64,000 nt of DNA, taken from NCBI GenBank assembly GCA_040079575.1, contig JBEBKH010000003.1, positions 7,854 to 71,853 on the forward strand. The letters run 5' to 3'. The stretch is from Chakrabartia sp. (GTDB lineage: Bacteria > Pseudomonadota > Alphaproteobacteria > Sphingomonadales > Sphingomonadaceae). Shown here in pieces: positions 4,546 through 43,792 of the stretch. Position 1 is the stretch's first letter. Each line of letters opens with the position of its first letter. Under the pieces are notes generated by a model. The model saw only the letters and a program-made list of their open reading frames with translations. It was not told the origin of the DNA and did not search any database. A program made the translations under genes and the position numbers.

Positions 4546-6888
4546 TCAGTCGTGCAAATATAATTCCGCCATCGCATCGATAATCGCCGCTGCATCAAGC
4601 CGATATGTCCTGTAAAGATCTGGCAAATCCCCGGTCTGGCCAAAACGGTCAACCCCCAAGGGGCTGATCCGCATGCCCTTTACGCCGCCGATCCATGATA
4701 GTGCGCCGGGGGAACCGTCAATCACCGAAACGATCCCAGCATTTGGTGACAATAGCGACAATAAATTTTCGATATGGCAGGGCGCATCGCCTGCCCCGGC
4801 CCAGCGCCCCGCACGCCGCGCCGACCAATCGCGGTGAAGGACATCTGGCGAGGTAACATTGAGGAGACCAAGCCCTGGAATGTCGTCGAGAAGGGACTCA
4901 TAAGCCGACAGCGCTTCAGGGGCGATCGCGCCGGTAAAAGCGATGGCGGCTTCTGCGCCGCGTGCTGGTTGTCGCAGCCAATATCCCCCCTTAAGCGCAT
5001 CCCCTTCCCAATCATTGCTCTCCCGCTCGACTTGCGGGATGACGCGCGTGCTTAACCGCAAATAGACCGAACTCCCCTCCGGTTTTTGCAAATGTTCGAA
5101 CGCCCAACGCATGAAAAGCGCGACTTCATCGGCATAGGATGGTTCAAAATAGGCAAGGCTGGGTTGCCCCATACCAATAAGCGGCGTGTTGATGGATTGG
5201 TGCGCGCCCCCCTCAGGCCCCAAAGTGAGGCCAGACGGCGTTCCGACCAACAGAAAACGCGCGTCTGAATAACAGCCATAATTGAGGGCATCGAGTCCGC
5301 GCGCAATGAAGGGGTCGTAAACTGTCCCTACCGGGATCAGCCGTGTCCCAAAATGTTGGGCAGCAAGCCCTAAAGATGTGAGCAACAGGAAGAAGTTGTT
5401 TTCGGCAATGCCAAGTTCGATATGCTGGCCCGCCGCATGTGCCGCCCATTTTTGCGCAGAGGGTATATTGGCTTCACGAAAAACATCTGCGAGATCGGAC
5501 CGCCGAAACAAACCCCTCTGATTAACAAACCCGCCCAAATTCGTCGTCTGTGTCACATCGGGGGCCGTTGTAACAATGCGGTCAGCAAGCGGTTCTGAAG
5601 ATTTGGCAAGGTCAAGCAGAACATGCCCAAAGGCAGCCTGCGTTGATTGCGCTTCGCCTTGGGGTACAGGCAGCCGCACGGGTACGGGCACGGGTCCAGG
5701 CTGGGCTTCAGGCTTTTTCTGGGACAAGACACTGTTATCAACAAACGCCTTCAGTCGCGCCGCGATATTTCCGCCAAGCCCGCCAAAGGCTTCCCATTCA
5801 TTCCCCGCTTCAATCCCCATGCTGTTGCGGAACTGCTCCATTTGTGTCGGGTTCATCATCCCTGAATGATTGTCTTTATGCCCCGCCAATGGCAGGCCAT
5901 ATCCTTTCACCGTATACGCAATGAACAAGGTTGGCTGCGTGTCATTGGCGCTGTCAAACGCCTCCATCAGGGATGCAATACAGTGGCCGCCCAAGTTGGT
6001 CATCAATGCGGCCAGACCGTCATCGTCAAAACTATCAAGCAGCGTGGTCACGTCAGGGTGATCGCCAATGTCGGAGAGCAATCGCGCCCGCCATGCCGCG
6101 CCGCCCTGATAGGTTAATACGGCAAACTCTGCGTTGGGGCAGTTTTCGATCCATTCTTCCAAGGCTTTGCCACCGGGGCGGGCGAAAGCCGCACGCTGCA
6201 ATTTTCCGTGTTTGAGGGTGATAACACGCCAACCGCATGTTTCAAAAATATCATCAAAACGCCGAAACATCCGGTCTGCTGTAGTGTTATCAAGCGACTG
6301 GCGATTGTAATCGACCACCCACCAACAGTTCCGAATATCATGCTTATACCCTTCAATCAGGCATTCATAGATATTGCCTTCATCAAGCTCCGCATCGCCC
6401 ATCAACGAAATCATCCGGCCTGCATCGGCTTCTGCCATTGAACCATGGGCGATCACATAATCCTGAACCAGACTAGAAAAGGCCGTGATTGCGACTCCCA
6501 ACCCCACCGATCCCGTCGAAAAATCAACCGGGATTTTATCCTTCGTCCGCGAAGGATAACTTTGTGCTCCCCCCAAGGCGCGGAAGTGTTGCAATTGTTC
6601 GAGCGACTGGTTGCCCAGCAAATAATGGATTACCTGTAACACCGGCCCAGCATGGGGTTTGACCGCAACTTTGTCCTGCGGGCGCAAAGCATGAAAATAG
6701 AGCGCCGCCATAATCGCGGTCATCGATGCGCAGCTGGCTTGATGACCACCAACTTTTAATCCGTCGCGCTTTTGACGAATATGGTTGGCATTGTGAACAA
6801 TCCATGCCGAAAGCCAACGCAGCCGAGCATCCAATGCTTCAATAGTGGCAATTTTTTCGGCGCGTGCATCTGCGGTCATATTGGTCAT
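4546..6888 (-). CDS. Homodimeric-type 2-oxoacid dehydrogenase E1 (AceE/MdeB-like, transketolase fold, ThDP)
   Basis: GGHQASCAS, YPSRTKD, STGSVGLG, ThDP motif GDAELDEG...DYNRQSLD, HIELGIAE, EGGAHQS; start at MTNMTAD. Confidence 0.85.
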   Translation of the reverse strand: MTNMTADARAEKIATIEALDARLRWLSAWIVHNANHIRQKRDGLKVGGHQASCASMTAIMAALYFHALRPQDKVAVKPHAGPVLQVIHYLLGNQSLEQLQHFRALGGAQSYPSRTKDKIPVDFSTGSVGLGVAITAFSSLVQDYVIAHGSMAEADAGRMISLMGDAELDEGNIYECLIEGYKHDIRNCWWVVDYNRQSLDNTTADRMFRRFDDIFETCGWRVITLKHGKLQRAAFARPGGKALEEWIENCPNAEFAVLTYQGGAAWRARLLSDIGDHPDVTTLLDSFDDDGLAALMTNLGGHCIASLMEAFDSANDTQPTLFIAYTVKGYGLPLAGHKDNHSGMMNPTQMEQFRNSMGIEAGNEWEAFGGLGGNIAARLKAFVDNSVLSQKKPEAQPGPVPVPVRLPVPQGEAQSTQAAFGHVLLDLAKSSEPLADRIVTTAPDVTQTTNLGGFVNQRGLFRRSDLADVFREANIPSAQKWAAHAAGQHIELGIAENNFFLLLTSLGLAAQHFGTRLIPVGTVYDPFIARGLDALNYGCYSDARFLLVGTPSGLTLGPEGGAHQSINTPLIGMGQPSLAYFEPSYADEVALFMRWAFEHLQKPEGSSVYLRLSTRVIPQVERESNDWEGDALKGGYWLRQPARGAEAAIAFTGAIAPEALSAYESLLDDIPGLGLLNVTSPDVLHRDWSARRAGRWAGAGDAPCHIENLLSLLSPNAGIVSVIDGSPGALSWIGGVKGMRISPLGVDRFGQTGDLPDLYRTYRLDAAAIIDAMAELYLHD

Positions 6889-7014
6889 GCGGCTCTCTCT
6901 ATCCCTAATTGCAAGATAATAGGCCTCACTCAGCAGCATGTCCTTGCAAAATACCCTATGTTTCTGCAATAAATTGGCATATTTATCCAAAATATATTAA
7001 TAATAGGGTTTTAT

Positions 7015-7500
7015 ATGCCAATTCATAGTCCCGATGCGATAGACCTCAAAATTCTCGAACAACTGCAATCTGATGGACGGTTGACCAATCAGGATCTGGC
7101 CGACCGCATCGGTCTTTCACCAAGCCCATGTCTTAGACGGGTACGGCAGCTTGAGACGAGCGGCATGATCTCTCGCTATGTCGCATTGGTTGATCCTGCA
7201 GCAATCGGCCTTTGGGTCACGGCATTTGTGCGCGTGCGATTGGATCAACAAGATGACCGCCATCTGGCAGATTTCGAAACCGCAGTTTCTGAATTTCCAG
7301 AAGTCATGGAATGCTATCTCATGACCGGAGAATCCGACTATCAGTTGCGCGTTCTTGTCGGATCACTTGTCCAGTTTGAAGAATTTCTTCGCTACCGCCT
7401 TACACGCGTAAAGGGTGTTGCAAATGTCACCACGAGCTTTGCCTTGCGCCCCGTAATCTACAAAACTGCGCTACCGACGTCGGGTGCGAATGCCAAATAG
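7015..7500 (+). CDS. Lrp/AsnC family transcriptional regulator
   Basis: DLKILEQLQSDGRLTNQDLADRIGLSPSPCLRRV helix-turn-helix; ECYLMTGESDY effector domain; divergent from the E1 gene. Confidence 0.95.
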   Translation: MPIHSPDAIDLKILEQLQSDGRLTNQDLADRIGLSPSPCLRRVRQLETSGMISRYVALVDPAAIGLWVTAFVRVRLDQQDDRHLADFETAVSEFPEVMECYLMTGESDYQLRVLVGSLVQFEEFLRYRLTRVKGVANVTTSFALRPVIYKTALPTSGANAK

Positions 7501-8918: not shown

Positions 8919-9539
8919 TCACGCATCCGGCAGCTGCGCCAAAGCATCGTCGAGCAGGCGGCGGACAACAGCCCGCGCCTCTTCGACAGGCAATTCCTGA
9001 TCATGGCGCAGCAGCCGCCATGTCTGGAAGCCAAGGATCACTTCAAGCCCACGAATGCCGAGCCTATCGTCGCACATGCTTGATGGCAGATTTGCCGCAA
9101 CCATCGCACACTCAAGTTTGAGCATACGCTTATAATCCTCCATCAAAAATGCGGACTGAAACCGTTTGATACTGGCCGAAATGCGATATGGGAGAATTGT
9201 TTCGAAAACCTTGGCGCGGCGGTCCGCTATGGTAAACATCCGCTCCTTCCAAGTGCATCCTTCGGGTGGCTCCATTATGATTGGCAACACGCGCGTTTCA
9301 ATCTCTTCGCCCATTTCGCGGTACAGCGCATCCATATCGTCAAAATGCCGAAACACGGAACGCAGCCCCACTCCGGCGAGTTCAGCCACGCGCGCTGCGC
9401 TGGGAGAGACATCGCCCTTGCCAACCAATTCAAGCATCGCCGCCACAATTTTAGCGCGGCTTGAACGGCTGCGCTCGCGACGGCCATCGACGAGGGGTTG
9501 AGGATTTGCAGGAGATAGAGCCAAAGGTGCAGCAGGCAT
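8919..9539 (-). CDS. TetR/AcrR family regulator
   Basis: RERSRSSRAKIVAAMLEL...AARVAELAGVGLRSVFRHF helix-turn-helix. Confidence 0.93.
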   Translation of the reverse strand: MPAAPLALSPANPQPLVDGRRERSRSSRAKIVAAMLELVGKGDVSPSAARVAELAGVGLRSVFRHFDDMDALYREMGEEIETRVLPIIMEPPEGCTWKERMFTIADRRAKVFETILPYRISASIKRFQSAFLMEDYKRMLKLECAMVAANLPSSMCDDRLGIRGLEVILGFQTWRLLRHDQELPVEEARAVVRRLLDDALAQLPDA

Positions 9540-9657: not shown

Positions 9658-10731
9658 TTACGCAGACATTTCCAGTACAATCTTTCCTACATGCCGTTTG
9701 GTCGAAAATGCTTCCTGCGCTGCGACAATTTCGGACAGCGGGAATATGAGCGCGACCAGAGGTGTGATGTCTCCGCTTTCAATATAGCGGATGAGGTTGG
9801 GAAACACCTCTGGCTCAAGGATTGTACATCCGATAAGTTGCAAATCTTTAAGGTACAATGTCCTTAAATCAAGATCGACAACCGGACCCGAAATTGCGCC
9901 CGCAACCCCGTATCGTCCGCCACGTTTGAGGCCGTTCAGGATTGCGCCAAACTGTGCGCCGCCAACGACATCAACGACGGCGTCAAAATATTCTTTGCCA
10001 AAAAGCGCAACTATGTCGGCGTCCCTGGGGATTACCTTGGCCGCACCCAAAGCACGTACAGCCTCTGCTTTGTCTGCTCCCGCCATTGCAACAATTTCTG
10101 CGCCGCGCCTCCTGGCGAGTTGGACGGCAGCAGAACCAACCCCGCCCGACGCGCCTGTGATCAACACACGTTCGCCCGCTGCCAATCCAATGCGGGTAAG
10201 CATATTTTCTGCAGCGGAATAAGCGCAGGGAAAGCTTGCCAATTCGACATCGCTTAGACTGCTCTCAATCCGGTGCGCATGAACAGAAGGCACGCGGGCA
10301 TAGTCGGAAAACGCGCCGTCCACTTCGGAACCAAAGTAAATCGCGTCAAATCGACCTCGCCCCCTGAAAACCGGTTCAATCAGAACACGTTCGCCAATCC
10401 GCTTTGGATCAATCTGTGTCCCCACAGCAACAATCCTCCCGCACGCGTCCGCCCCCTGAATGCGGGGGAACTGGAACATCTTCCCCGACCAGCCGTCATT
10501 TTCTGCTCCCGCAATACCAGTGGCAGCGCCCACCTCCGTCGCCTCGGCCACCGCTTTCGAATACCAGCCGATCCGCGTGTTAATGTCTGTATTATTGACC
10601 CCTGCTGCACCGACACGGATCAGAACATCATCGGGACCAAGAGCGGGAACAGGCACATCATCGCGCACCTCCAGCTTTTCATAGCCGCCATTGCCCGTCA
10701 GCAACACTGCGCGCATCAGGGAAGGCGTCAT
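9658..10731 (-). CDS. MDR superfamily alcohol dehydrogenase/quinone oxidoreductase-like protein
   Basis: AAGVNNTD, QGADACGRI, ITGASGGVG Rossmann motif, HVGKIVL; start overlaps the Rieske stop (TGATG). Confidence 0.88.
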   Translation of the reverse strand: MTPSLMRAVLLTGNGGYEKLEVRDDVPVPALGPDDVLIRVGAAGVNNTDINTRIGWYSKAVAEATEVGAATGIAGAENDGWSGKMFQFPRIQGADACGRIVAVGTQIDPKRIGERVLIEPVFRGRGRFDAIYFGSEVDGAFSDYARVPSVHAHRIESSLSDVELASFPCAYSAAENMLTRIGLAAGERVLITGASGGVGSAAVQLARRRGAEIVAMAGADKAEAVRALGAAKVIPRDADIVALFGKEYFDAVVDVVGGAQFGAILNGLKRGGRYGVAGAISGPVVDLDLRTLYLKDLQLIGCTILEPEVFPNLIRYIESGDITPLVALIFPLSEIVAAQEAFSTKRHVGKIVLEMSA

Positions 10732-11984
10732 CAATTGGCGCGCTCCAACCCAAACTGGTTCAGATACCATTTTTGGAAACTAATCACACTGCCCTCCTGA
10801 TCAGAATAGCGTCCCGGACGATAGCGGCTGGACATGATCCCAGCCTGATTATTCTCGGTGATCACTTTGTCCTGTGTGGTCGTAGCATGATAACCCCAGA
10901 TCATTTTTTCGATATCTACCTCTGCCTCGCTGGCGCGGCCATCGACCAGCCAGATCATCTCGACGTCGGTAGCGAGCGCTGAGCGTGGAGTGAATTGGAA
11001 AAGAATGACAAAATGATCATCTGCAACAATCTGGCTGAACGGGCTGAAGCTCAAATGCATCCGCCCGCCGTCGGCATGTGTGCGTTTGCCCATGAGCGGA
11101 GCTGGCGCGGTGCCGTCTTGCGTTTCGGCGGCCCAGCCATCTTTATTCATACGTTGCATCATCAGCCGCAAGTGGCTGCTTTCTGGGGCGTCATCGATAT
11201 TGCCAATCGGACGCCCGACCGCAGCCGCACTTTCTTCCCATGCCTGCAGCTTAGGGGTGAAACTGGCAATGGCATCTGCCGGGCCCGAATTTGGTCCCGC
11301 CCCCACCGCAACAATCGATTCCGCCGCATGCATTGAACAGAATTCGGGGTGCGAAGGGACACAGTGATAGCATTCGAAGAAATTTTCAACGACCAGCTTC
11401 CAATTGGCATCCGTGGGATAGCTGCCAGCATGCGCAATCCGGGCGTCTGCAATCCCGTGATAATCAAGGATCGCTCCCATCTCGCCAAAAGTAGCATCGA
11501 AATCGACGGGCTCACCTTCAGTCATATTAATGAAGATCAGCCCGTGGAACACGCGGACATGGCAAGAAAACAGACTGTTTTCAGCCTTGTCAAAATCCTC
11601 CGGCATCAACCGCGCGGCGATCAACTTGCCATCAAGACCAAACGTCCAAGCGTGATAGGGGCAGACCAATCGCGGCGCATTTCCGCTTTCAGCAGAACAT
11701 AGCGTCGACCCGCGATGACGACAGACATTGAAAAAGGCACGGACGCTATCGGCATTTTCACGGATGATAATGATCTGTTCCTGGCCAATTTTGAACAGGA
11801 AATAGTCGCCCTTCTCTGGCACCCGCGAAACATGCCCGGCAAGGATCCATTTTTTACTGATCACTTGATCCATATCGGCCTTGAACACCTCGGCGCTGGT
11901 GTAAAATTCTTGGTCAAAGCTATACCCAACGCGCGTATTTGCGGCGAGGCGGTTCATCATTTCACTTTGGGTTTCGGTCATCAA
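10731..11984 (-). CDS. Rieske non-heme iron oxygenase alpha subunit (GbcA/Stc2-like), copy 1
   Basis: CRHRG...CPYHAW Rieske ligands; ENFFECYHC...SHPE and QD mononuclear iron ligands. Confidence 0.93.
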   Translation of the reverse strand: MMTETQSEMMNRLAANTRVGYSFDQEFYTSAEVFKADMDQVISKKWILAGHVSRVPEKGDYFLFKIGQEQIIIIRENADSVRAFFNVCRHRGSTLCSAESGNAPRLVCPYHAWTFGLDGKLIAARLMPEDFDKAENSLFSCHVRVFHGLIFINMTEGEPVDFDATFGEMGAILDYHGIADARIAHAGSYPTDANWKLVVENFFECYHCVPSHPEFCSMHAAESIVAVGAGPNSGPADAIASFTPKLQAWEESAAAVGRPIGNIDDAPESSHLRLMMQRMNKDGWAAETQDGTAPAPLMGKRTHADGGRMHLSFSPFSQIVADDHFVILFQFTPRSALATDVEMIWLVDGRASEAEVDIEKMIWGYHATTTQDKVITENNQAGIMSSRYRPGRYSDQEGSVISFQKWYLNQFGLERAN

Positions 11985-14425
11985 ATTTTAATCCGTGCGT
12001 TGGTGGGGTCATACATGGGTTTGAGCGATGCGGTGACGGGATAGCGCACACCCGCAATTTCGATTTCATAGTCATCCGCGCCTATCGGTCCGACCACCTC
12101 GTCATTTGCTGCTGTGACATAGCCAAGCCCGCAAGCTGCGCCGAGAGTATGGGCATACATGCCAGAACGAATGTAACCGGCGATGCGATCTCCCTGCCAG
12201 ATCGGTTCATTATGATAGAGCATCGGGTCGGGCGATTTTAGCAGAAACTGAACAAGACGCTGTTTGAGGCCATCCTGCTTTTGCTTGAGCAATGCATCAC
12301 GCCCGATAAAGCCACCCGCCTTGTCCATCCGTACTGCAAAGCCAAGTCCAGCCTCTAAAGGCGTGTCTTCATCGGTGATGTCGTGACCCCAGTGACGATA
12401 TCCCTTTTCCATACGCAACGCATTGAGCGCGTGATAACCACAATGTTTGAGGTCAAATGCCGCACCCGCCGCGACGATTTCATCGTACACACCGGTCATG
12501 AATTCAGATGCGATATAAAGCTCCCAGCCCAATTCACCGACATAGGTAATGCGTGAAGCGCGGACGATGGCATAGCCAAGTTCGATGTCCTGAGACGTGC
12601 CGAACGGGAAGGCTTCGTGCGATAGATCATTGGGGCAAATCGACTGAAGCAAGGCGCGCGCATTCGGCCCCATGATTGAAATCACACCCATAGCAGAGCT
12701 GACATTGGTCAGCACCGCATGCGCATCATCAGGCGTATGACGTTTCAACCAGTTGAAATCTTTAATTTCGGTCTCTGCCCCTGTGACGATCAAAAAGGCT
12801 GTGTCGGACAGGCGGGTGACGGTCAAATCCGCTTCGATCCCACCTTTTTCATTGAGCCACTGTGTATAGATCAGCTTGCCCGGCGCAACATCGACATCGT
12901 TCGCGCAGACACGGTTGAGCACGCTGCAAGCATCGCGTCCTTCCAACCGAAATTTTGCGAAGGATGACTGATCGAACAGGCCTACCCCCTCGCGCACCGC
13001 TTTGCACTCAGCCGCATTGGCTTCAAACCAATTCTGACGACCATAACTATATTCATATTTTGGCGCACTACCCGGGGCACCGTACCAATTAGGCCGCTCC
13101 CATCCGAACGCCTCACCGTGACACGCGCCCGCTGCTGCCACGCGGTCATGGATCGCAGAACGGCGAACGCCGCGCGCGGTTTCATATTGTTTGAACGGAT
13201 AATGGGTCGCGTAAAGCAGGCCGAGGCTTTCGGTTACCCGCTCACGCAGATATTTGCGATTGATCTGAAAAGGCATGTTGCGGCGAATATCGACAGTCCA
13301 CAAATCGGCTGGCGGGATACCGTCACGGATCCAGTCAGCCATCACCTTGCCAACACCGCCCGCCGATTGCAGGCCGATTGAGTTCAAACCCGCTGCAACA
13401 AAACAGCCTCTGAGTTCCGCACTTTCACCCAGATGATAGCGCACGTCGGGGGTAAAGCTTTCGGGCCCGCAGAAGAATTTCTGAATGCCCGCTTTCTCAA
13501 GTGCGGGCACCCGGCGCATCGCATCCATCAGCAACGGTTCGAAATGTTCGAAACTCCCCGCAATTTCATCAAAGCAGAAATCTTCGGATATGCCGTCCAT
13601 CCCCCAGGGCCGCGCATTGGGTTCAAACGCGCCAACGAGCAACTTGCCCGCGTCATATTTATAATATCCGCAATAATCATAGTCGCGCAGCACAGGGAGC
13701 GTTGAATCGATTCCCTCAACACCTTCGAACAGAACATAATAATGTTCACAGGCGTGCAACGGAGCGGCGACGCCGATACTCGCAGCCAAATCGCGCGTCC
13801 ACATGCCGCCGCAAATCACGACATAGTCAGCATCGATTGATCCTGTGTCGGTATCAACGCCAGTCACGCGGTCGCCGTTGTGGCGGATTTTGGTAACCTT
13901 GGTATTTTCAAATATCCGTGCGCCGCCAGTGCGCGCGCCCTTCGCCAACGCCTGTGTAATATCGACCGCATTGGCATATCCATCGCTCGGAATATGGATG
14001 CCGCCCACCACATCATCAACATTGACGATATGTGCGAGCGCCTTGATTTCTTCGGGCGTGACAACATGGACGGGCAGATCGAACACTTTGGCCATTGAGG
14101 CGCTTCGTTTGAGTTCCTCAAACCGTTCCATATTGGTCGCCATCGAAATTGAACCGCACTGGCGATATCCCGTCGCTTGACCGGTCTCAGCCTCAAGCCC
14201 GCGATAAAGTTCGCCGGTATATTTGGCCAGCTTGGTCATGTTGATGCTTGGGCGCAATTGCCCGACCAGCCCCGCCGCATGCCACGTCGTGCCACTGGTC
14301 AACTGCTTGCGTTCCAGCAAGACAACATCGTCCCAGCCGATCTTTGTCAGATGATAGGCAATCGAACAGCCGATCACGCCGCCGCCGACAATGACGACCT
14401 TTGCCTTTTTGGGGAGTTCAGCCAC
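11981..14425 (-). CDS. GcvT-family FAD-dependent N-methyl amine dehydrogenase (sarcosine/DMG dehydrogenase-like)
   Basis: GGGVIG, TTWHAAG (covalent FAD His), GPESFTPD, GWERPNW; C-terminal THF-binding GcvT domain. Confidence 0.93.
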   Translation of the reverse strand: MAELPKKAKVVIVGGGVIGCSIAYHLTKIGWDDVVLLERKQLTSGTTWHAAGLVGQLRPSINMTKLAKYTGELYRGLEAETGQATGYRQCGSISMATNMERFEELKRSASMAKVFDLPVHVVTPEEIKALAHIVNVDDVVGGIHIPSDGYANAVDITQALAKGARTGGARIFENTKVTKIRHNGDRVTGVDTDTGSIDADYVVICGGMWTRDLAASIGVAAPLHACEHYYVLFEGVEGIDSTLPVLRDYDYCGYYKYDAGKLLVGAFEPNARPWGMDGISEDFCFDEIAGSFEHFEPLLMDAMRRVPALEKAGIQKFFCGPESFTPDVRYHLGESAELRGCFVAAGLNSIGLQSAGGVGKVMADWIRDGIPPADLWTVDIRRNMPFQINRKYLRERVTESLGLLYATHYPFKQYETARGVRRSAIHDRVAAAGACHGEAFGWERPNWYGAPGSAPKYEYSYGRQNWFEANAAECKAVREGVGLFDQSSFAKFRLEGRDACSVLNRVCANDVDVAPGKLIYTQWLNEKGGIEADLTVTRLSDTAFLIVTGAETEIKDFNWLKRHTPDDAHAVLTNVSSAMGVISIMGPNARALLQSICPNDLSHEAFPFGTSQDIELGYAIVRASRITYVGELGWELYIASEFMTGVYDEIVAAGAAFDLKHCGYHALNALRMEKGYRHWGHDITDEDTPLEAGLGFAVRMDKAGGFIGRDALLKQKQDGLKQRLVQFLLKSPDPMLYHNEPIWQGDRIAGYIRSGMYAHTLGAACGLGYVTAANDEVVGPIGADDYEIEIAGVRYPVTASLKPMYDPTNARIKI

Positions 14426-14428
14426 CGG

Positions 14429-16846
14429 TCAAACCTTCATTTTCATATTGTCAGGATCATAAGCGGGATGCTCCAACACTGTGGCCACACACCGTTCACC
14501 TTGAAGATAGAGATCAAATGTTGATCCAGGGGCAGCATTTTCAATTGGTACACAGGCAAAGAACAAACTCTTCCCGACACGGTGGCCGTATCCGCCCGAT
14601 GTCGTCAAACCTATGCACGTGTCGCCGATCAGGCATGGCTCAGCACCGCGCACATCGACATTGGTCGCGCCCACTTCACCGTAAACAATCCGGAACCGGT
14701 CAGGCGCATCGAGCGTCGCTTGCTTGCCAACGAAATCGTCTTTCTTGAAATTGATAAAGCGTGGCATATCAGCCTCAATCATAGTCAATTCGTTGGTCAG
14801 TTCAGACCCCCACGCTTTATATCCCTTTTCCATCCGCATCGTATTGGCGGCATACAGGCCGTAATTGACGATGCCGAATTCCTGACCCGCTTCCCAAACA
14901 GCATCATACAATACCGCGAGATCTTCCATGGCTGGATGCAGTTCCCACCCCAACTCTCCAGCATAAGAAACACGAAGCGCCCGCATTTTGATGCCCGCGA
15001 TCACGATATCCTGACCACTCAACCAGCGAAAACCTTCATTGCCGAGGTCCGCATCGGTCAGCTTTGCCAGCACATCGCGCGAGTGCGGGCCGTTCATCAC
15101 CAGAACGCCCAAGTCCATCGTGAGGTTGCTGATGGTGACATCCTCGCCCGGCAATTTACTCTGTATCAACCAGTCCCAGTCGCGCTGTTCGGCAGCCGAG
15201 GCGGAGAGACAATAGAAATGGTCGTCGGCAAAACGCGTCACCGTCATCTCGCCGTAAATGCGTCCCTGCACCGACAAGGGATGGACAAGCCCAATTCCGC
15301 CAAGTTTCTTGGGCATGCGGTTTGCACAGATACGGTTGAGGAAGCCCTCTGCGTCCGGCCCCGTCACATCATATTTGGCAAAACCCGAAAGATCGAGCAC
15401 GCCGACGCGCTCTTCAACGGCCTTCACTTCCGCCGCAATCACCTCAAACGTGTTGGTGCGCTGATAGCCGCCTTCTTCCGGCGCGCCGTCAAGCGCGAAA
15501 TATTTGGGCCTTTCCCAACCATAAGTCTCACCAAAGACCGCACCGGCAGCCTTAAGTGGCGCATAAAGCGGGCTGGTTTTTTGCGGGCGGCCATCGGGTT
15601 CTTCTTCGCCGGGAAGCCGCGTGGTGAAGGTCATCCGGTAATCGAGGAACACCTTGTCGCGGCAATAATCTTCAGTGGCAAATGGTCCGTAACGGCGCGG
15701 ATCAAATTCGGTCATATTGATGTCTGCATCACCGAACACCATCCACTGCGCGAGATATTTGCCAGCGCCACCCCCCTGGGCGATGCCAAAGCTGGTGCCG
15801 CAACACTGCCAGAAATTCTTAAGGCCAACCGCAGGCCCCAGCAACGGCCCCCCATCGGGCGTGTGCGGAATCGCGCCATTGACGAAGCGCCGCAGGCCGA
15901 CTTCACCGAAAACCGGCATACGTTCGATTGCACGTTCAAGCCATGGCGCGATCCGTTCCAGATCCTCGGGGAACAGCTCGCTGGTTGAGTTCCATTCGGG
16001 ATGGCCACCGCGCGGAGCCCAGGCTTCGGCGAGGCCCGTGCTTTCGTAAACGCCGATCAGCCCGCTTTTCTGCTCCTGTCGAAAATAGCCGGAAACATGC
16101 GGGCAACGCATGACGGGGATTTCTTCCGATCGCTCCATAAAAGCCGGGATCGGGTCGGTCACAACATAATGATGCTCCATATTGGTCACCGGAATATCAA
16201 TGCCCGCCATCTGCGCCACCTGCCGCGCATAGCAGCCTGCCGCGTTCACAATGATTTCGGCGCGGACCGTGCCTTTTTCGGTCTCCACGTCCCATTCGCC
16301 TGATGGCAGCTGTGTGAGGCCGGTAACGCGGTTCTTACGCACAATCTTCGCGCCCATATTCTTGGCGCCAATGGCCAGTGCGTTGCAGATGCCCGACGGA
16401 TCAGCATGACCGTCTTCGGTCGTCCGCGCGCCTGCGATCACGCCTTCCAGCGTCATGAACGGATTATGGCGGAGGATTTCCGCGGGCGGAATGATCTCCA
16501 TCTCAAACCCGATGATCTTGGAAAAGCCCTGAATATAGCGCATCCACGCCAGCTCACGCTCATTGGTGGCAAGCCTTATACCGCCCGATTTGTGCCAGCT
16601 GACATATTGGCCCGTCAGGCCTTCCAGCTGCGGATAGAGCTCATTTGAATAAGCATGCATCTTGGCAAGATTGAAGCTGCCGGTGATATTGGGGCACTGG
16701 CCCGCCGCATGCCAGGTGGAGCCGGAGGTCAGTTCATCCTTTTCAATCAACAGGCAATCGGTCCAGCCGAGTTCGGCAAGGTGATAGAGCAAACTCGCCC
16801 CCATGATCCCGCCGCCGATAATCACAACCCGTGCCGATGTCTGCAT
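14429..16846 (-). CDS. GcvT-family dimethylglycine dehydrogenase-like protein
   Basis: GGGIMG, STWHAAG, NGAIPHTPDG, GWERPKYF, RMEKGYKAWG; AGGAG ribosome-binding site. Confidence 0.93.
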   Translation of the reverse strand: MQTSARVVIIGGGIMGASLLYHLAELGWTDCLLIEKDELTSGSTWHAAGQCPNITGSFNLAKMHAYSNELYPQLEGLTGQYVSWHKSGGIRLATNERELAWMRYIQGFSKIIGFEMEIIPPAEILRHNPFMTLEGVIAGARTTEDGHADPSGICNALAIGAKNMGAKIVRKNRVTGLTQLPSGEWDVETEKGTVRAEIIVNAAGCYARQVAQMAGIDIPVTNMEHHYVVTDPIPAFMERSEEIPVMRCPHVSGYFRQEQKSGLIGVYESTGLAEAWAPRGGHPEWNSTSELFPEDLERIAPWLERAIERMPVFGEVGLRRFVNGAIPHTPDGGPLLGPAVGLKNFWQCCGTSFGIAQGGGAGKYLAQWMVFGDADINMTEFDPRRYGPFATEDYCRDKVFLDYRMTFTTRLPGEEEPDGRPQKTSPLYAPLKAAGAVFGETYGWERPKYFALDGAPEEGGYQRTNTFEVIAAEVKAVEERVGVLDLSGFAKYDVTGPDAEGFLNRICANRMPKKLGGIGLVHPLSVQGRIYGEMTVTRFADDHFYCLSASAAEQRDWDWLIQSKLPGEDVTISNLTMDLGVLVMNGPHSRDVLAKLTDADLGNEGFRWLSGQDIVIAGIKMRALRVSYAGELGWELHPAMEDLAVLYDAVWEAGQEFGIVNYGLYAANTMRMEKGYKAWGSELTNELTMIEADMPRFINFKKDDFVGKQATLDAPDRFRIVYGEVGATNVDVRGAEPCLIGDTCIGLTTSGGYGHRVGKSLFFACVPIENAAPGSTFDLYLQGERCVATVLEHPAYDPDNMKMKV

Positions 16847-19102: not shown

Positions 19103-19276
19103 AACAGCAAAAAAACGCAAAAAATTTGACCCCTTTCCCCAAATTTTTCAATTGTGGCCCGTGCCCCTCACAGGCTTAATCTTGACATTGAAAAAGGGGG
19201 AAGGCCGCCGCTTGCCTGCGTGGTGACGTTACGGCAAAGGCCCAAACCATAGACGGATGAATGGGTGCGCGCGCGT

Positions 19277-20230
19277 ATGAAAATTGGTTTTATTGGTCTT
19301 GGCAATGTCGGCGGCAAACTTGCGGGGAGTTTGATCCGCAACGGCCATGATGTGACGGTCCGTGATCTCGATGATGCATTGGTTGCAGACTTTGTCGCGC
19401 GCGGGGCAAAGGCGGCGGCATCTCCCAAAGAACTGGGTGAGAATGTCGACCTGATCGTAACGTGCCTGCCCTCCCCCGCTGCAAGCGCGGCGGTGGCAGA
19501 AGGCGAAGATGGTTTTCTGAACGTCATGCGTGCGGGCCAGGTCTGGCTCGAAATGAGCACCACGGATTATAGCGAAATCATCCGCCTTGGCGCACTGGTT
19601 GAGGCGCGCGGGGCACTGTTTATGGAATGCCCCGTTTCGGGCGGGTGTCACCGCGCTGATACGGGTAATATCGCTATCTTTGCCGGCGGGCCGCGCGCGG
19701 CATTTGAATTCGTCCTGCCAGTGCTGACCACGATGGGGCGGCGTATCCTCCACACGGGCGAATTGGGAACCGCATCACAATTGAAGGTGATGACCAATTA
19801 TCTGTGCACCACCCATCTGGTTGCCTTGGCTGAAGCTTTGACGGTGTGTAAAGCGGTTGGGCTGGATATGAACACGACCTATGAAGCGATCCGCATTTCT
19901 TCTGGCAACAGCTTTGTCCATGAAACCGAGAGTCAGGTGATCCTGAACGGCAGTCGCGACATCAATTTCACGATGGATCTGGTGAGCAAGGATGTTGGGC
20001 TGTTTGACAAGATCGCGCATGAAGCCGGGGTTCCGGTTGAACTCTCTCCGTTAATCGTGCGGCTGTTTAAGGAAGGGGAAGCGGCATATGGCCCGCGCGA
20101 ATTTTCCCCCAACATCATCCGCCGTTATGAAGAACCGTTGGGCATAAAGGTACTCGGCACTGGCTTTCCAGCGGACATGGTAGATGATGAACCCGAAGAA
20201 CCCGGTTATGAAGTTGTGCCCCGTCGTTAG
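19277..20230 (+). CDS. NAD(P)-dependent beta-hydroxyacid dehydrogenase (3-hydroxyisobutyrate/6PGDH family)
   Basis: MKIGFIGLGNVG, ECPVSGG, SQLKVMTN catalytic Lys, FTMDLVSKD. Confidence 0.9.
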   Translation: MKIGFIGLGNVGGKLAGSLIRNGHDVTVRDLDDALVADFVARGAKAAASPKELGENVDLIVTCLPSPAASAAVAEGEDGFLNVMRAGQVWLEMSTTDYSEIIRLGALVEARGALFMECPVSGGCHRADTGNIAIFAGGPRAAFEFVLPVLTTMGRRILHTGELGTASQLKVMTNYLCTTHLVALAEALTVCKAVGLDMNTTYEAIRISSGNSFVHETESQVILNGSRDINFTMDLVSKDVGLFDKIAHEAGVPVELSPLIVRLFKEGEAAYGPREFSPNIIRRYEEPLGIKVLGTGFPADMVDDEPEEPGYEVVPRR

Positions 20231-21252: not shown

Positions 21253-22872
21253 TTAAACCTGCGCGTCCTCAAGGATCATGGCAGCGCCTTTTTCAGCCAC
21301 CATCACGGTCGGCGCGTTGGTGTTCCCTGACGTAATGGTCGGGAATACTGACGCATCAACGACGCGCAAACCCGTGACGCCGTGCACACGCAAGCGCGCA
21401 TCGACGACCGAAGTCATAGGGTCTGGCCCCATCATGCAGGTGCTTGTGGGGTGATAGACAGTGTCAGCGCGCGCGCGAAAGTCCGCGAGTAAGGCGTCAT
21501 CACCGTCAACCTGCGTCCCAGGCATGATTTCTTCAGTAATGATATCGGCCAACGGTCGGGTCCGCGCGATCTGACGGAGCAAGCGGTTGCCCGCAAGGAC
21601 ATCATTTATGTCCGATTGTGTTGCAAGATAATTGGGATGGATGATCGGGTAAACCGACGCATCGGCTGATGCGAGTTCGATATGCCCCCGGCTCGTCGGG
21701 CGGCAGGGATTGTGTGAGAGCAGGAAGGCTGAAAAGGGATCAGGATTCAAGAGTTTCCGTTCAGAAAGCGGTGTCTTCGTATAGCTGACTGGACTGAAAT
21801 AGAGCTGCAAATTCGCATGCTGCTGGGACGGATCACTGCGCACGAAGCCCCCGCTTTGATTGACGCTCAAGGACAAAGGCCCAGCGCGGTCTGCCGCATA
21901 ACGAAGCCCTGCTCGAATCTTACCAAGAAACGGATACAAAACATCATTCAAAGTCGCCGTGCGCACCTTATAGAAATATGAAACAGCAATATGATCCTGC
22001 ATATTTCGGCCAACAGCCTTGGCATCAACAAGTGGTTCGATTCCGACGCGTTTCAAATGATCAGCATCACCAATGCCGGACAGCATCAACAATTGCGGCG
22101 AATTGATCGCGCCGCCAGATAAGATCACCTCACGCCGCGCCTTAACCTGACAAATTTTCCCGCGACGCCTATATTCAATCCCCACCGCGCGCCGCCCCTC
22201 AAAAAGGATACGTGTAGCGAGCGCATGGGTTCGCAGCGCAAGCGTCTTGCGCTTGCGCACTGGGCGCAAAAAAGCATTCGCCGTTGATGCACGCCACCCG
22301 CCGCGCGTGTTGATCTGATAAAAGCCAACGCCTTCAGGATGTCCGCCGTTGAAATCGCTGCTGCCCGGAAAGCCCAGCGCCTGTGCGGTCTCTATAAAAC
22401 TATGGCAGACGGGATGAACATGAGGAGAAATGTCAGTGACATGCTGCAACCCGCCGCGCCCGTGATACGCACTATGCCAGTCAAAATCCTCTGACTTTTT
22501 GAAATATGGCAACACATCACTCCACCCCCACCCGGGGTTGCCTAATGCCTTCCAATCCTCAAAATCACGCGGCTGACCGCGCACATAGACCATCGCATTG
22601 ATAGAACCCGATCCGCCAACAACCTTTCCGCGCGGCCAATAGCTGCGCCGCCCGCCAAGCGATGCCACCGGCTCTGTATCGTACATCCAGTTGATGCGCT
22701 TATCGAAGAAGGTGCGGCCATAGCCAATCGGCATCTGAATCCAAATCGACAGATCACTGCCACCGGCTTCGAGCAAAAGGACCGTGCTTTTGCCATCCGC
22801 CGTCAGGCGATTGGCCAGCACACAGCCCGCCGTGCCTGCGCCAACGACAATATAATCAAATTCCTCAATCAC
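21253..22872 (-). CDS. GMC oxidoreductase (choline dehydrogenase-like)
   Basis: [35 protein letters not shown] (His/Asn catalytic pair). Confidence 0.93.
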
Positions 22873-24056
22873 CGAACGGGATATTGCGTCATATCAAGAT
22901 GCAACATCGTGCCCGTATACGGGTTGGCACGCGCCACATCTTCATTCAGTTCAATGCCGAGGCCCGGCGCTGTCGGCGGGATGACATGCCCGTCTTCGAA
23001 CTGGATGGGTTTTTTCAAAATCTCGCTGTGAAAGCCGCCCCATGTCTCAATACTTTCGAGGATCAGAAAATTGGGTGAGCACGTAGCGATTTGGATATTC
23101 GCCGCCCCGACAATCGGGCCGCAATAGAGGTGCGGTGCGATCTGAGCATGATAGACCTCGGCCATTCCCGCAATCTTTTTGGCTTCAAGAATACCGCCAA
23201 CGCGCCCAAGGTTCATTTGCAGGATGGCGGCGGCCCCAGCCTTCAGCAATCGTGCAAAATCATATTTGGTGGTCAGTCGCTCTCCCGTCGCAATCGGAAT
23301 GCTGGTCGCGCGCGCAACCTTTGCCATTTCATCAGGCGCATCGGGCGGCACAGGTTCTTCGAGCCACAAAGGGTCATAGGGTTCCAAGCGCTTGGCAAGA
23401 CGGATCGCGCTCGTCGCGGTCATTTGACCGTGCGTCCCAAAGAGGAGGTCCGCCTTGTTGCCTACCGCCTCTCGCAAAGATTTGGCAAAGCGTTCCGACA
23501 GATCGAGGGCATCGAGTGATAATTGCCGCCCGTCAAATGCCGAATAGGGACCCGCTGGATCAAATTTGAGCGCCGTAAACCCCTGGGCCAAATATTCAGC
23601 CGCGCGTTCCGCTGCTAGATCGGGATCATGATAAACATCGCTTTGGTCACCCGCGCGCGGATAAATATAAGTGTAAGCCCGCAAGCGTTCGTGCACTTGC
23701 CCACCAAGCAGTTTGTAAACCGGCTTATTGGCCTCCTTGCCGATAATATCCCAGCACGCCATTTCAAGCGCGGAGAGCACTCCCATCAATGTCAAATCAG
23801 GATGCTGTGTAAAGCCGCTTGAATAAACCCGCCGCCACAGTGTTTCTATGTCATGCGGGTCATTGCCGACACCATAACGCGCGAACACATCCTCAATCAT
23901 CTTGGCAACCAGATGCGGTTCGAACGGCACGCAATAGGCCTCACCGATACCAGACACGCCACAGTCCGTCGTTAACTTCACAAAAACGAAATAGCGGCCA
24001 CCAAAATGCGGCGGCGGATTGCCGACCACAAAGGTTTCGATGTCAGTCAGTTTCAT
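22869..24056 (-). CDS. Mandelate racemase/muconate lactonizing (enolase superfamily) enzyme
   Basis: GIGEA, EMACWDIIGK, ALKFD, WLEEP, TGER, APH motifs. Confidence 0.9.
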   Translation of the reverse strand: MKLTDIETFVVGNPPPHFGGRYFVFVKLTTDCGVSGIGEAYCVPFEPHLVAKMIEDVFARYGVGNDPHDIETLWRRVYSSGFTQHPDLTLMGVLSALEMACWDIIGKEANKPVYKLLGGQVHERLRAYTYIYPRAGDQSDVYHDPDLAAERAAEYLAQGFTALKFDPAGPYSAFDGRQLSLDALDLSERFAKSLREAVGNKADLLFGTHGQMTATSAIRLAKRLEPYDPLWLEEPVPPDAPDEMAKVARATSIPIATGERLTTKYDFARLLKAGAAAILQMNLGRVGGILEAKKIAGMAEVYHAQIAPHLYCGPIVGAANIQIATCSPNFLILESIETWGGFHSEILKKPIQFEDGHVIPPTAPGLGIELNEDVARANPYTGTMLHLDMTQYPVR

Positions 24057-41173: not shown

Positions 41174-41334
41174 CGTGCTTCGGTTTTGGATGGCCCGGAC
41201 CTTTCGATGTTATGCGCAATATCCTGATCCCCTAACTGCCCGACATTTTGACATAGGGCTATGCGAAAATGCGATTTTGAACTGTAACCGGGATGGTCCA
41301 ATCAACTGTCGAGAAAAAGCAGAGGGGCAATGAT

Positions 41335-42543
41335 ATGGATATGAAGCGAATGGATGCGCTTTTTAAGGAGCGGCGTGCCAATCACACACTTCCGCAACCA
41401 CTCTATATCAGTCAGGACGCCTTTGATTTCGACATGACCGCAATCTACGGTCAAAGTTGGTTGATGGCGGGTATGGCATGTGAACTGCCCAAAGCAGGCA
41501 GCTATGTCGCCATGATGGTTGGCAAATGGCCGGTTATCATCACCCGCGACCGACACGGCGAAATCCGCGCCTTTCACAACAGTTGCCGACACCGTGGATC
41601 CATGATCTGCGCACCCGGCAGTGGCACGGCACCAAAACTTGTTTGCCCCTATCACCGCTGGACCTATGATCTCGATGGGGCACTGTTTGCCGCAGGGCGG
41701 ATGCCCGATGATTTTGAAAAGAGCGAACATGGGTTGAAACCAGTGGCGATTGAATGCCGCGCCGGTGCGATCTTCATCTGCCTTTCAGAAAACCCACCCC
41801 CCTTCGATGACTTCGGTGACACACTGGCCGCTTTTTCTGCACCCCACCATTTCGAGGACGCGAAATTGGCGCACCAAAGTGTGCTCGTTGAACATGCCAA
41901 TTGGAAATTGGTGATGGAAAATGCCCGTGAATGCTATCACTGCGCAACGGGACATCCAGAGCTTTCAAAAACATTCCCCGTTGGTATGTCGAAGCATTTT
42001 GATGCCCATGAGGACGCCCGCGCCAGTGCCTTTGCCGCGACAATGGATGGCCTGGAATTTCCCCATACCCCCATCGAGGGTGATTGGTGGCAGGTGGCCC
42101 GTTTTGCCCTCAATGAAGGCTGCGTGTCCATTTCAGCCGATGGCCAGCCACTGGTTAAAAAGTTGATGTGCTCCGCAAATGGCGGAGACATTGGTTCGAT
42201 GCGCTGGGCAATTGACCCACATCTTTTTGCCCATGCCACTGCTGACCATGTTTTCATGTTTAGCGCAATGCCGGTGGGTCCAACCGAAACCCATGTTTAC
42301 AGCAAATGGTTTGTGCACAAAGATGCGGTTGAGGGCGTGGATTATGATGTCTCAGCATTGACCGATTTGTGGACGAAGACCAACGCGCAGGACAAAGAAC
42401 TGGCCGAAAACAACCATGCCGGTGTCAACAGCCCCGGCTATACCCCAGGGCCATATTCTCAAGATGCAGAAATGCTCGCCCAACGTTTTACCGACTGGTA
42501 TTGCGACAAGGCGCGCGCCTATATTGATGCCCATGTCGACTGA
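41335..42543 (+). CDS. Rieske non-heme iron oxygenase alpha subunit (GbcA/Stc2-like), copy 2
   Basis: CRHRG...CPYHRW; ENARECYHC...GHPE; QD ligand; AGAGGGG RBS before MDMKR. Confidence 0.93.
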   Translation: MDMKRMDALFKERRANHTLPQPLYISQDAFDFDMTAIYGQSWLMAGMACELPKAGSYVAMMVGKWPVIITRDRHGEIRAFHNSCRHRGSMICAPGSGTAPKLVCPYHRWTYDLDGALFAAGRMPDDFEKSEHGLKPVAIECRAGAIFICLSENPPPFDDFGDTLAAFSAPHHFEDAKLAHQSVLVEHANWKLVMENARECYHCATGHPELSKTFPVGMSKHFDAHEDARASAFAATMDGLEFPHTPIEGDWWQVARFALNEGCVSISADGQPLVKKLMCSANGGDIGSMRWAIDPHLFAHATADHVFMFSAMPVGPTETHVYSKWFVHKDAVEGVDYDVSALTDLWTKTNAQDKELAENNHAGVNSPGYTPGPYSQDAEMLAQRFTDWYCDKARAYIDAHVD

Positions 42544-43792
42544 TTATACAAAGGGCATGCGCCCAGAAACTCTGGCCGTTTCTTATGGCTATGAACCCGA
42601 AATGGGCATGGGATCGGTTAAACCTCCCATCTTCATGACCTCAACCTTCGTCTATCCTTCAGCGCAGCACGCCAAGGATGTGCACGAAGCCTATTTTGAT
42701 GGCAGCGGGCCGTTGGTTGGCCAAACCAATCATATCTATGCGCGGTTGGGCCATCCCGGTTTGGATTTTCTAGAAAAACGCCTTGCGGCGATTGACGGCG
42801 CAGAAGATGCCGTGGCCTTTTGCAGCGGCATGGCCGCGCATTCCAGCATAGCATTGGCCTATGTGCGCAGCGGCGACAGCGTCATCCACGGACGGCCGAT
42901 TTATGGCGGTGTCGATATGTTGTATAACAGCATCATGCCCCAATTCGGGTCACATGCTGCAGCCTATCTTGACGGTACAAACGAAAATGATGTGCGCGCT
43001 GCGGCCAAGGCGGCGATGGCAAAAGGGCCGTTAAAACTTATTATTGCTGAAACCCCTGCCAATCCGACAGCTGCCATCGTCGATCTTGCTCTGATGGTGC
43101 GGATTGCGAATGAGGTTGGCGCAGAGCAAGGGCATCGCCCCCTCGTTGTTGTTGACAACACCTTGCTTGGCCCCTTTGCCCAGCGCCCAATCGAACACGG
43201 CGTCGATTTGTGCATGACATCGCTCACCAAATATTGCGGCGGGCACAGCGACCTGTTGGCAGGCGGGATCAGCGGACAAAAAGATCTGATCGAACATTTG
43301 CGCATGTTACGGACAAGTTGGGGCAATCATCTTGATCCCTACACGGCCTGGTTGGTCCTGCGGTCTTTAGAATCGGTTGCGGTTCGGACCGAACGAGCAA
43401 TGAGCAATGCGCGCGGTGTTGCAGAATTTCTGCGCGATCATCCTAAAGTGGCAGGTGTAACCTATCTTGGTTTTCTTGAACCCGGCTCACCACAACGCAC
43501 TGTCTATGATCGCCAATGTAAAGCTGCGGGTTCAACCTTCTCTTTCCATCTTCACGGCGGAGAGGCCGAAGCGTTCCGCATGCTCGACGCGTTGCAATGG
43601 ATGAAATTGGCGGTCAGCCTTGGCGGCTCCGAAACGCTAATCTGCCATTCGGCGAGCACGACACATTATGCCGTGGCCCCCGAACAAAGGCTGGCAGGCG
43701 GCATTACCGATGGCACGGTCCGGCTGTCGGTTGGGCTAGAACATGTCGATGATCTGATCGCGGACCTCAATCAAGCATTGGAAGCGGTATAA
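42533..43792 (+). CDS. Cys/Met metabolism PLP enzyme (methionine gamma-lyase/cystathionine gamma-synthase family)
   Basis: KPPIFMTSTF, YARLGHP, SGMAA, IYGG, ETPANP, VDNT, SLTKYCGGHSD (PLP Lys), AVSLGGSETL, RLSVGLE. Confidence 0.92.
   Translation: MSTDYTKGMRPETLAVSYGYEPEMGMGSVKPPIFMTSTFVYPSAQHAKDVHEAYFDGSGPLVGQTNHIYARLGHPGLDFLEKRLAAIDGAEDAVAFCSGMAAHSSIALAYVRSGDSVIHGRPIYGGVDMLYNSIMPQFGSHAAAYLDGTNENDVRAAAKAAMAKGPLKLIIAETPANPTAAIVDLALMVRIANEVGAEQGHRPLVVVDNTLLGPFAQRPIEHGVDLCMTSLTKYCGGHSDLLAGGISGQKDLIEHLRMLRTSWGNHLDPYTAWLVLRSLESVAVRTERAMSNARGVAEFLRDHPKVAGVTYLGFLEPGSPQRTVYDRQCKAAGSTFSFHLHGGEAEAFRMLDALQWMKLAVSLGGSETLICHSASTTHYAVAPEQRLAGGITDGTVRLSVGLEHVDDLIADLNQALEAV

Follow-up and report, generated by a model that had tools for sequence, protein, structure and literature searches.

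A putative operon for the stepwise N-demethylation of a trimethylammonium compound in Chakrabartia sp.

Introduction

Carnitine, gamma-butyrobetaine and the algal betaines are major sources of nitrogen and carbon, and they are trimethylamine precursors in animals. Which of these or other quaternary amines would a bacterium demethylate with one Rieske oxygenase and two flavin demethylases encoded side by side? The question is raised by Module A, a group of four genes at positions 9658-16846 of a 64,000-nt stretch of Chakrabartia sp. DNA on contig JBEBKH010000003.1 (hereafter the window), which belongs to a 2.5-Mb assembly that is 98% complete with a contamination of 2.9%. Module A encodes two dimethylglycine dehydrogenase (DMGDH)-like proteins, DH1 and DH2, a Rieske oxygenase alpha subunit, Rieske A, and an MDR-family enzyme (Table 1). 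Judging from sequence and gene context we propose, with moderate confidence, a catabolic role for Module A, in which the operon would take all three N-methyl groups off a trimethylammonium substrate that is not glycine betaine. The interpretation given in a first-pass annotation of this DNA is partly supported, as it holds in outline and is sharpened here.

No published aerobic route of this kind, and no paper on the Module A operon, was found in a literature search. For gamma-butyrobetaine the search returned two routes, namely oxygenolytic cleavage by CntA/YeaW, which yields trimethylamine, and methyl transfer by an anaerobic cobalamin enzyme, the latter being the only demethylation of this compound among them (PMC8604678). 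In that system, MtyB of Eubacterium limosum converts gamma-butyrobetaine to 4-dimethylaminobutyrate in a cobalamin-dependent reaction (PMC8604678), however, MtyB is an anaerobic, corrinoid-dependent enzyme of the MttB family and is unrelated in sequence to Module A.

The Rieske Oxygenase

By its sequence, Rieske A is a group V (quaternary-amine) Rieske oxygenase with every hallmark of that group. It carries the Rieske cluster motif (CRHRGSTLC...CPYH at residue 87), the His-His-Asp set that binds the mononuclear iron, a bridging Glu and, next to it, a Cys-x-x-Cys pair; residues 208-216 (E-C-Y-H-C-V-P-S-H) match E205/C206/H208/C209/H213 of CntA, and an Asp aligns with D360 of Stc2. In the scheme of Quareshy et al., the residue found at CntA position 203 separates two clades of group V (PMC7948474). 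Members of clade Va (CntA, choline monooxygenase and OxyBAC) have Tyr or Phe at this position, in pi-cation contact with the ammonium group, whereas the clade Vb demethylases (GbcA/BmoA and Stc2) have Asn, and the substrate carboxylate ligates the iron (PMC7948474). In Rieske A the motif is ENFFECYHCVPSHPEF; Phe takes the place of CntA Tyr203, another Phe replaces the Arg that follows, and ENFFECYHC is invariant among its close homologs (120/120). Rieske A thus has the aromatic residue of clade Va and lacks both the Asn at 203 and the GbcA/Stc2 clade membership that characterize clade Vb.

Three group V Rieske oxygenase genes lie in the window (10731-11981, 41293-42543 and 61238-62440). The other two read ENARECYHC and ENNRECYHC and reach 400 and 436 bits on the NCBIfam model for GbcA, vs. 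284 bits for Rieske A and a cutoff of 670. In a FastTree phylogeny, which included no named CntA, choline monooxygenase or OxyBAC sequence, one Arg-204 clade groups Pden_4897 (the Paracoccus denitrificans GbcA), 3n0q (the TM1040 protein), Rieske B and Rieske C; Rieske A falls into a separate, F203-dominated clade (support 0.97) with Mesorhizobium and Yoonia plasmid proteins. The iron-site motif of Rieske A bears the group Va signature, and the protein is not simply GbcA-like. On these grounds Rieske A is not of the GbcA/Stc2 type. Its place outside that clade, together with a different substrate-orienting residue, favors a substrate other than glycine betaine, and we regard this signature as the strongest argument from sequence against glycine betaine or another alpha-betaine. 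The earlier proposal of a different substrate is therefore favored by the clade and Phe203 of Rieske A, with the particular compound remaining a guess.

A known parallel for this signature is the carnitine monooxygenase CntAB (PDB 6y8j), with which Rieske A shares group V membership, the aromatic residue 203, the Cys-x-x-Cys pair, the bridging Glu and an iron-site motif of the form xP[AS]HPxF (xPAHPxF in CntA). CntA binds gamma-butyrobetaine and carnitine through a pi-cation contact. In contrast to what the gene content of Module A implies, namely demethylation, CntA splits off trimethylamine and has no DMGDH-type partners. An unlikely alternative would take the parallel further and let Rieske A hydroxylate a non-methyl carbon beside the nitrogen, as CntA and OxyBAC do, with one arm leaving as an aldehyde to be taken up by the MDR enzyme or an aldehyde dehydrogenase while DH1 and DH2 demethylate the remaining dimethyl tertiary amine. 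Such chemistry is consistent with Phe at 203 and the common iron-site motif, with the attack on non-methyl carbons by all characterized aromatic-203 enzymes, and with the translational coupling of a reductase-type MDR gene to the Rieske gene. However, no natural substrate of such a shape is evident, and in overall similarity to Rieske A, Stc2 and 3n0q (229-254 bits over the full length) come ahead of CntA, of which only the N-terminal half aligns (156 bits, residues 11-216 only). Related aromatic-203 Rieske genes also adjoin StcD-like N-methyl demethylases, which fits sequential demethylation.

Group V Rieske proteins with Phe or Tyr at CntA position 203 (motifs FL, FF, FR, YL and others) form a large, diverse and apparently uncharacterized radiation. 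Aromatic-203 forms predominate among the 150 nearest cluster representatives of Rieske A (P0121-P0270) and outnumber the canonical Asn-Arg GbcA/Stc2 type there.

The Two Predicted Flavin Demethylases

DH1 and DH2 are 32% identical to each other, and both have the architecture, the flavinylated His and the His/Tyr dyad of the DMGDH/SARDH/DMGO family. The flavinylation His of the TWHAAG motif is conserved in both (in DH1 the context is TWHAAGQCP), and in an alignment so is the His225/Tyr259 dyad of the Arthrobacter dimethylglycine oxidase (1pj5). Mammalian (rat/human) DMGDH is matched with 604 bits by DH1 and 511 bits by DH2, and no curated equivalog model matched either protein. DH1 is 42% identical to DH3, the DMGDH-like gene of Module C elsewhere in the window, and its orthologs in other Alphaproteobacteria share 51-59% identity; DH2 represents a second, widespread orthogroup (55-63% identity). 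One quaternary-amine Rieske oxygenase and two divergent, tetrahydrofolate (THF)-type flavin demethylases would give one enzyme for each of three methyl groups, as had been counted at first pass. Automatic names in the ESM Atlas, which serve as leads only, are "dimethylglycine dehydrogenase" near DH1 and "sarcosine dehydrogenase" and "4-methylaminobutanoate oxidase" near DH2.

Operon Structure and Conservation

The four genes are co-directional and, from the reading of their junctions, translationally coupled. DH1 and DH2 are separated by a 3-nt gap (TGA-CCG-GTG), and the DH2/Rieske and Rieske/MDR junctions are both TGATG with a 1-nt overlap, which bears out the tight coupling that had been noted before. 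The ATG start of Rieske A has an alternative in a TTG at 11984, which gives 417 aa. The ATG of the MDR gene at 10731 overlaps the Rieske stop codon, and a 370-aa open reading frame from 10770, with a 40-nt overlap with the Rieske gene, is the less probable start. Promoter and terminator scans gave results at chance level.

Among 80 related Sphingomonadales loci, every one of sufficient length has the order DH1-DH2-Rieske, which is invariant across genera and is accompanied by protein identities of 80-94%; the MDR gene is present in most of these loci and absent from some. It is very unlikely, in our view, that the four enzymes share no pathway and act on different substrates, co-transcribed through history alone. 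Homologs of DH1, DH2 and the MDR enzyme do each occur in varied contexts elsewhere, and the loci that lack the MDR gene would suit such a reading, but it sits poorly with genes joined by 1-nt overlaps and a 3-nt gap, with an order kept across genera at this level of identity, and with complementary chemistry for quaternary, tertiary and secondary amines.

Close homologs of Rieske A are very common in lake and freshwater metagenomes, where one 90%-identity cluster holds 1362 member sequences, and searches for homologs left the range from ~45% to 80% identity without a full-length relative. Only 2-3 genera were seen to carry the gene when the order and the family (~112 family genera) were sampled, which is too few for a phyletic co-occurrence test. 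Among the isolates with the module are Sphingorhabdus rigui DSM 29050, Chakrabartia godavariana PRB40, Sphingorhabdus profundilacus IMCC26285 and S. contaminans KCTC 32445. With its confinement to a few freshwater sphingomonad genera the module may mark a niche.

Table 1. Genes of Module A and two nearby genes, with positions in the window.
Feature	Position	Strand	Length	Basis
DH1 (DAO + FAO_M + GCV_T + GCV_T_C)	14429..16846	-	805 aa	Pfam domains
DH2 (DAO + FAO_M + GCV_T + GCV_T_C)	11981..14425	-	814 aa	Pfam domains
Rieske A, oxygenase alpha subunit (Rieske + Ring_hydroxyl_A)	10731..11981	-	416 aa	Pfam domains
MDR (ADH_N + ADH_zinc_N)	9658..10731	-	357 aa	Pfam domains
HIBADH-family beta-hydroxyacid dehydrogenase	19265..20230	+		Pfam and NCBIfam
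Weak TetR-like regulator, 3' of MDR	8919..9539	-		Pfam TetR_N 20 bits, below cutoff

Aminotransferases in the Comparative Context

The comparative context points, by analogy, to a primary omega-amine as the product, which would go to an AptA-type transaminase. An AptA-type omega-aminotransferase gene (NF052567, 717 bits) directly follows the MDR gene in 49 of the 55 related loci with enough flanking sequence, in convergent orientation, and it adjoins the Rieske gene where the MDR gene is absent. A GabP-like permease gene comes next in 27 related loci, followed by an Lrp regulator and an E1-like thiamine enzyme. In the lineage of the window the aminotransferase site is filled by the weak TetR-like gene, a DUF1330 gene and a DsbA-like gene. 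Two complete genomes of the same family that lack the module yielded no hit to the aminotransferase, the HIBADH-family enzyme or the E1-like enzyme at the thresholds used.

DH2-type genes are operonic with class-III aminotransferase genes in three other lineages, namely alphaproteobacterium G110, Rhizobium leguminosarum and Yoonia. The DH2 orthologs of the first two operons are 56-64% identical to DH2, and the Yoonia relative 43%. In G110 (C1:4275900-4295800) the operon comprises genes for an XRE/cupin regulator, DH1-like and DH2-like proteins, sulfoacetaldehyde acetyltransferase (Xsc; 867 bits, above cutoff) and an AptA-type transaminase, and it is a candidate route for the demethylation of N,N-dimethyltaurine and N-methyltaurine leading to sulfoacetaldehyde. 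An acetate kinase gene lies divergently and a formate dehydrogenase gene is adjacent. The operon of R. leguminosarum plasmid pRL31b4 (192219-214663) encodes an ABC transporter, EtfB, EtfA, two DMGDH-type proteins, a class-III transaminase 61% identical to the sphingomonad one and a DUF3422 protein. Its ABC binding protein falls into the Atu4243/GABA (gamma-aminobutyrate)-sensor family (E ~1e-54), and the operon is a candidate for dimethyl-GABA catabolism. PurU and cupin regulator genes lie upstream, and similar tandem pairs occur on Agrobacterium plasmids. On a plasmid of Yoonia sp. SS1-5, a Rieske gene (41% identical to Rieske A, with the FF motif) and an agmatinase-family gene are found together, and the Rieske gene faces an operon for a transaminase, a DH2-type dehydrogenase, a Tm-1-like ATP-binding protein and a StcD-like demethylase. 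This plasmid thus holds an independent set of three demethylases plus a transaminase.

The MDR Enzyme

The MDR enzyme appears from its sequence to be a zinc-less, quinone-oxidoreductase-like NAD(P)H enzyme. GVNNTD and IQGADACG (Asn, Ala/Asp) replace the Cys and His-Glu motifs of the zinc ligands, the protein holds only 3 Cys and 3 His in total, and the nucleotide motif GASGGVGS is present; it thus lacks what marks the zinc-dependent MDR alcohol dehydrogenases. The best structural relative is an uncharacterized S. meliloti protein (PDB 4j6f, 275 bits). The first-pass annotation had suggested that this enzyme could act on the demethylated skeleton, but nothing shows that it does. Homologs at 38-46% identity come after the transaminase in ectoine clusters, and a role as an ene- or semialdehyde-reductase is possible.

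It is probably an ortholog of HpbM, going by the position of its homologs in P. pantotrophus and Leisingera. It is 57-60% identical to a gene that adjoins HpbD-like racemase genes in Paracoccus and Leisingera, and the P. pantotrophus homolog (57%) sits between a LysR regulator gene and an HpbD-like MR/MLE gene. HpbM (Pden_1186), encoded beside hpbD, is a proline-betaine-induced dehydrogenase of Paracoccus with no assigned role (PMC3950512). Module A resembles the Paracoccus proline/hydroxyproline betaine pathway (HpbD, HpbB1C1, HpbA and HpbM; PMC3950512) in a first demethylation by a Rieske enzyme, there of the Stc2 type, and in a GroES-domain dehydrogenase. However, the second demethylase of that pathway is the OYE/FAD-type HpbA, its substrate has only two methyl groups (PMC3950512), and Module A has no racemase.

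The Proposed Pathway and Its Alternatives

In the pathway that we propose, Rieske A would hydroxylate one N-methyl group of the quaternary amine and release formaldehyde, binding its substrate through a pi-cation contact with the Phe at the CntA Tyr203 position instead of carboxylate-to-iron ligation. A flavin amine dehydrogenase cannot start the sequence because a quaternary nitrogen has no lone pair. DH1, the nearer of the two to DMGDH, would then oxidize the tertiary amine and DH2 the secondary amine, each passing a one-carbon (C1) unit to THF in its GcvT domain to give methylene-THF and electrons to electron transfer flavoprotein. Going by the comparative context, the product would be a primary omega-amine that is transaminated by the AptA-type enzyme, which is encoded here on another contig (C38). 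For gamma-butyrobetaine the intermediates would be 4-dimethylaminobutyrate and 4-methylaminobutyrate, with GABA as the product.

Our ranking of substrates is a guess from analogy and places gamma-butyrobetaine first, beta-alanine betaine second and carnitine third. Gamma-butyrobetaine is put forward because of the GABA-type permease and binding protein, the CntA-like pi-cation residue and the precedent of Mabo, which demethylates 4-methylaminobutyrate to GABA ahead of a transaminase and succinate-semialdehyde dehydrogenase (PMC6122326). By its description Mabo belongs, like DH1 and DH2, to the DAO plus folate-domain family with covalent FAD, although it is a nicotine-pathway oxidase that catalyzes a single step and has no Rieske partner (PMC6122326). 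Taurine betaine, which the G110 operon with Xsc had suggested, was dropped for Module A, since Xsc was not found in the genome of the window or in five module-bearing sphingomonads.

Several observations weigh against the proposed pathway. The known aromatic-203 enzymes (CntA, choline monooxygenase and OxyBAC) do not N-demethylate (PMC7948474). Pfam scans for NAD_binding_1 and Fer2 domains, together with tblastn queries from three real partners, detected no GbcB/CntB/PDR-type reductase in the genome, nor any in the 80 related loci up to 10 kb from the module, and the operon has no transporter. The sphingomonad aminotransferase gene is convergent with the operon and lies outside it. In the genome of the window the aminotransferase gene (80% identical) is on contig C38, where it adjoins polyamine-type genes, and the permease gene is on contig C23, so that neither adjoins the module. 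The binding-protein family with the GABA binder also includes opine binders, and the 80 related loci all come from a single clade, which means that their synteny carries no independent weight. DH1 and DH2 orthologs elsewhere are mostly solitary genes and could be ordinary dimethylglycine and sarcosine dehydrogenases, and the specificity of Rieske enzymes can be loose, since HpbC2B2, an Stc2-type enzyme, is the main glycine betaine demethylase in P. denitrificans.

The last two points lend themselves to another explanation, that of a redundant glycine betaine route in which glycine betaine would be demethylated by Rieske A, dimethylglycine by DH1 and sarcosine by DH2, with glycine as the end point. 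The number and types of the enzymes do fit the known route (GbcAB/BmoAB, dimethylglycine dehydrogenase, and sarcosine dehydrogenase or SoxBDAG), in which a Rieske oxygenase is likewise followed by two FAD/THF-linked N-demethylations by the same protein families, with the covalent-FAD His and the folate domain. The DH1 match to mammalian DMGDH, the wide occurrence of DH1 and DH2 orthologs and the Paracoccus precedent for an Stc2-type Rieske enzyme add to this. We nonetheless consider it improbable. Module C already provides a GbcA-clade Rieske gene (grouping with Pden_4897), the adjoining DMGDH-like gene DH3, SoxBDAG and a BCCT transporter, in keeping with the glycine-betaine-like route first ascribed to it, and redundancy is improbable in a 2.5-Mb genome. 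Before the bridging Glu, Rieske A has Phe-Phe where all members of the GbcA/Stc2 clade have an Asn-Arg pair, and it does not fall into that clade. Module A also differs from the known route in lacking a GbcB partner, in its coupled MDR gene and in a context that indicates an omega-amine rather than glycine; DH2-type genes recur with omega-aminotransferase genes, which have no role after glycine. The genome keeps three distinct Rieske-plus-demethylase sets. In P. denitrificans the predicted DMGDH is Pden_1940, which is distinct from the plasmid-borne DH2 ortholog there.

A far-reaching extension of the proposed pathway, to which we give little credence, is that the whole ~27-kb island encodes an aerobic pathway from carnitine or gamma-butyrobetaine to succinate without trimethylamine release. 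An enolase-superfamily enzyme (22869-24056) would dehydrate carnitine to crotonobetaine, the zinc-less MDR enzyme would reduce this to gamma-butyrobetaine, and Rieske A, which would be the first N-demethylase known to have an aromatic residue 203, would lead through DH1 and DH2 to GABA. The AptA-type transaminase and an aldehyde dehydrogenase or the HIBADH-family enzyme would complete the route. In relatives the island includes the aminotransferase and permease genes too. If this were true, the repeated occurrence of GMC and MR/MLE genes beside aromatic-203 Rieske clusters, seen in Leisingera and in two alphaproteobacteria, would be functional.

Should the proposed removal of three methyl groups by Module A be correct, a Rieske-plus-two-dehydrogenase route would use compounds such as carnitine and gamma-butyrobetaine aerobically without making trimethylamine, and would supply folate metabolism with C1 units. 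N-demethylases would then be among the aromatic-203 group V Rieske enzymes, blurring the published functional split between clades Va and Vb.

Neighboring Genes and Related Loci

The window encodes PurU, a zinc alcohol dehydrogenase and formate dehydrogenase for C1 handling. Candidate electron donors are small [2Fe-2S] ferredoxins on contigs C34 and C41 and a Pyr_redox_2 plus BFD flavoprotein at 43792-45255 of the window. The HIBADH-family enzyme is 87-97% conserved and its gene is directly divergent from DH1 in loci without OlsA/SDR genes; it may possibly be linked to Module A, as a semialdehyde reductase. A homolog of the TetR-like regulator occurs in only 1 of the 80 related loci, making this regulator lineage-specific.

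Genes for a GMC oxidoreductase and an MR/MLE enzyme lie at 21253-24056. Their homologs (47-52% and 62-68% identity, respectively) adjoin aromatic-203 Rieske genes in three lineages each, namely a Leisingera thetidis plasmid and alphaproteobacteria G093 and G340, and the Rieske genes of Leisingera and G093 each have a StcD-like demethylase gene as a partner. The neighboring operon that had been taken for an independent "receptor-sulfotransferase oxidation operon" may be linked to quaternary-amine catabolism. A role of the MR/MLE gene as an HpbD-type betaine racemase was rejected, as it is 24-26% identical to HpbD-like genes and scores as galactonate-dehydratase-like.

Contig C176 (1-2211; 2.2 kb) of the same genome carries the C-terminal 665 residues of DH2 a second time (93% identity) and, after them, the opening 71 residues of a Rieske gene (75% identity); this is either a strain variant that was binned along with the genome or a genuine second module. 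On contig C38 (2048-10476) the AptA-type transaminase gene is divergent from a polyamine-style operon with two glutamine-synthetase-like genes, a DAO oxidase, a class-III transaminase and an amino-acid permease. At 4546-7500 of the window, a thiamine enzyme of 814 aa that resembles AceE/transketolase, with only 147 bits on the aceE model, is encoded divergently from an Lrp regulator, and this pair is conserved beside the AptA and GabP genes in related sphingomonads.

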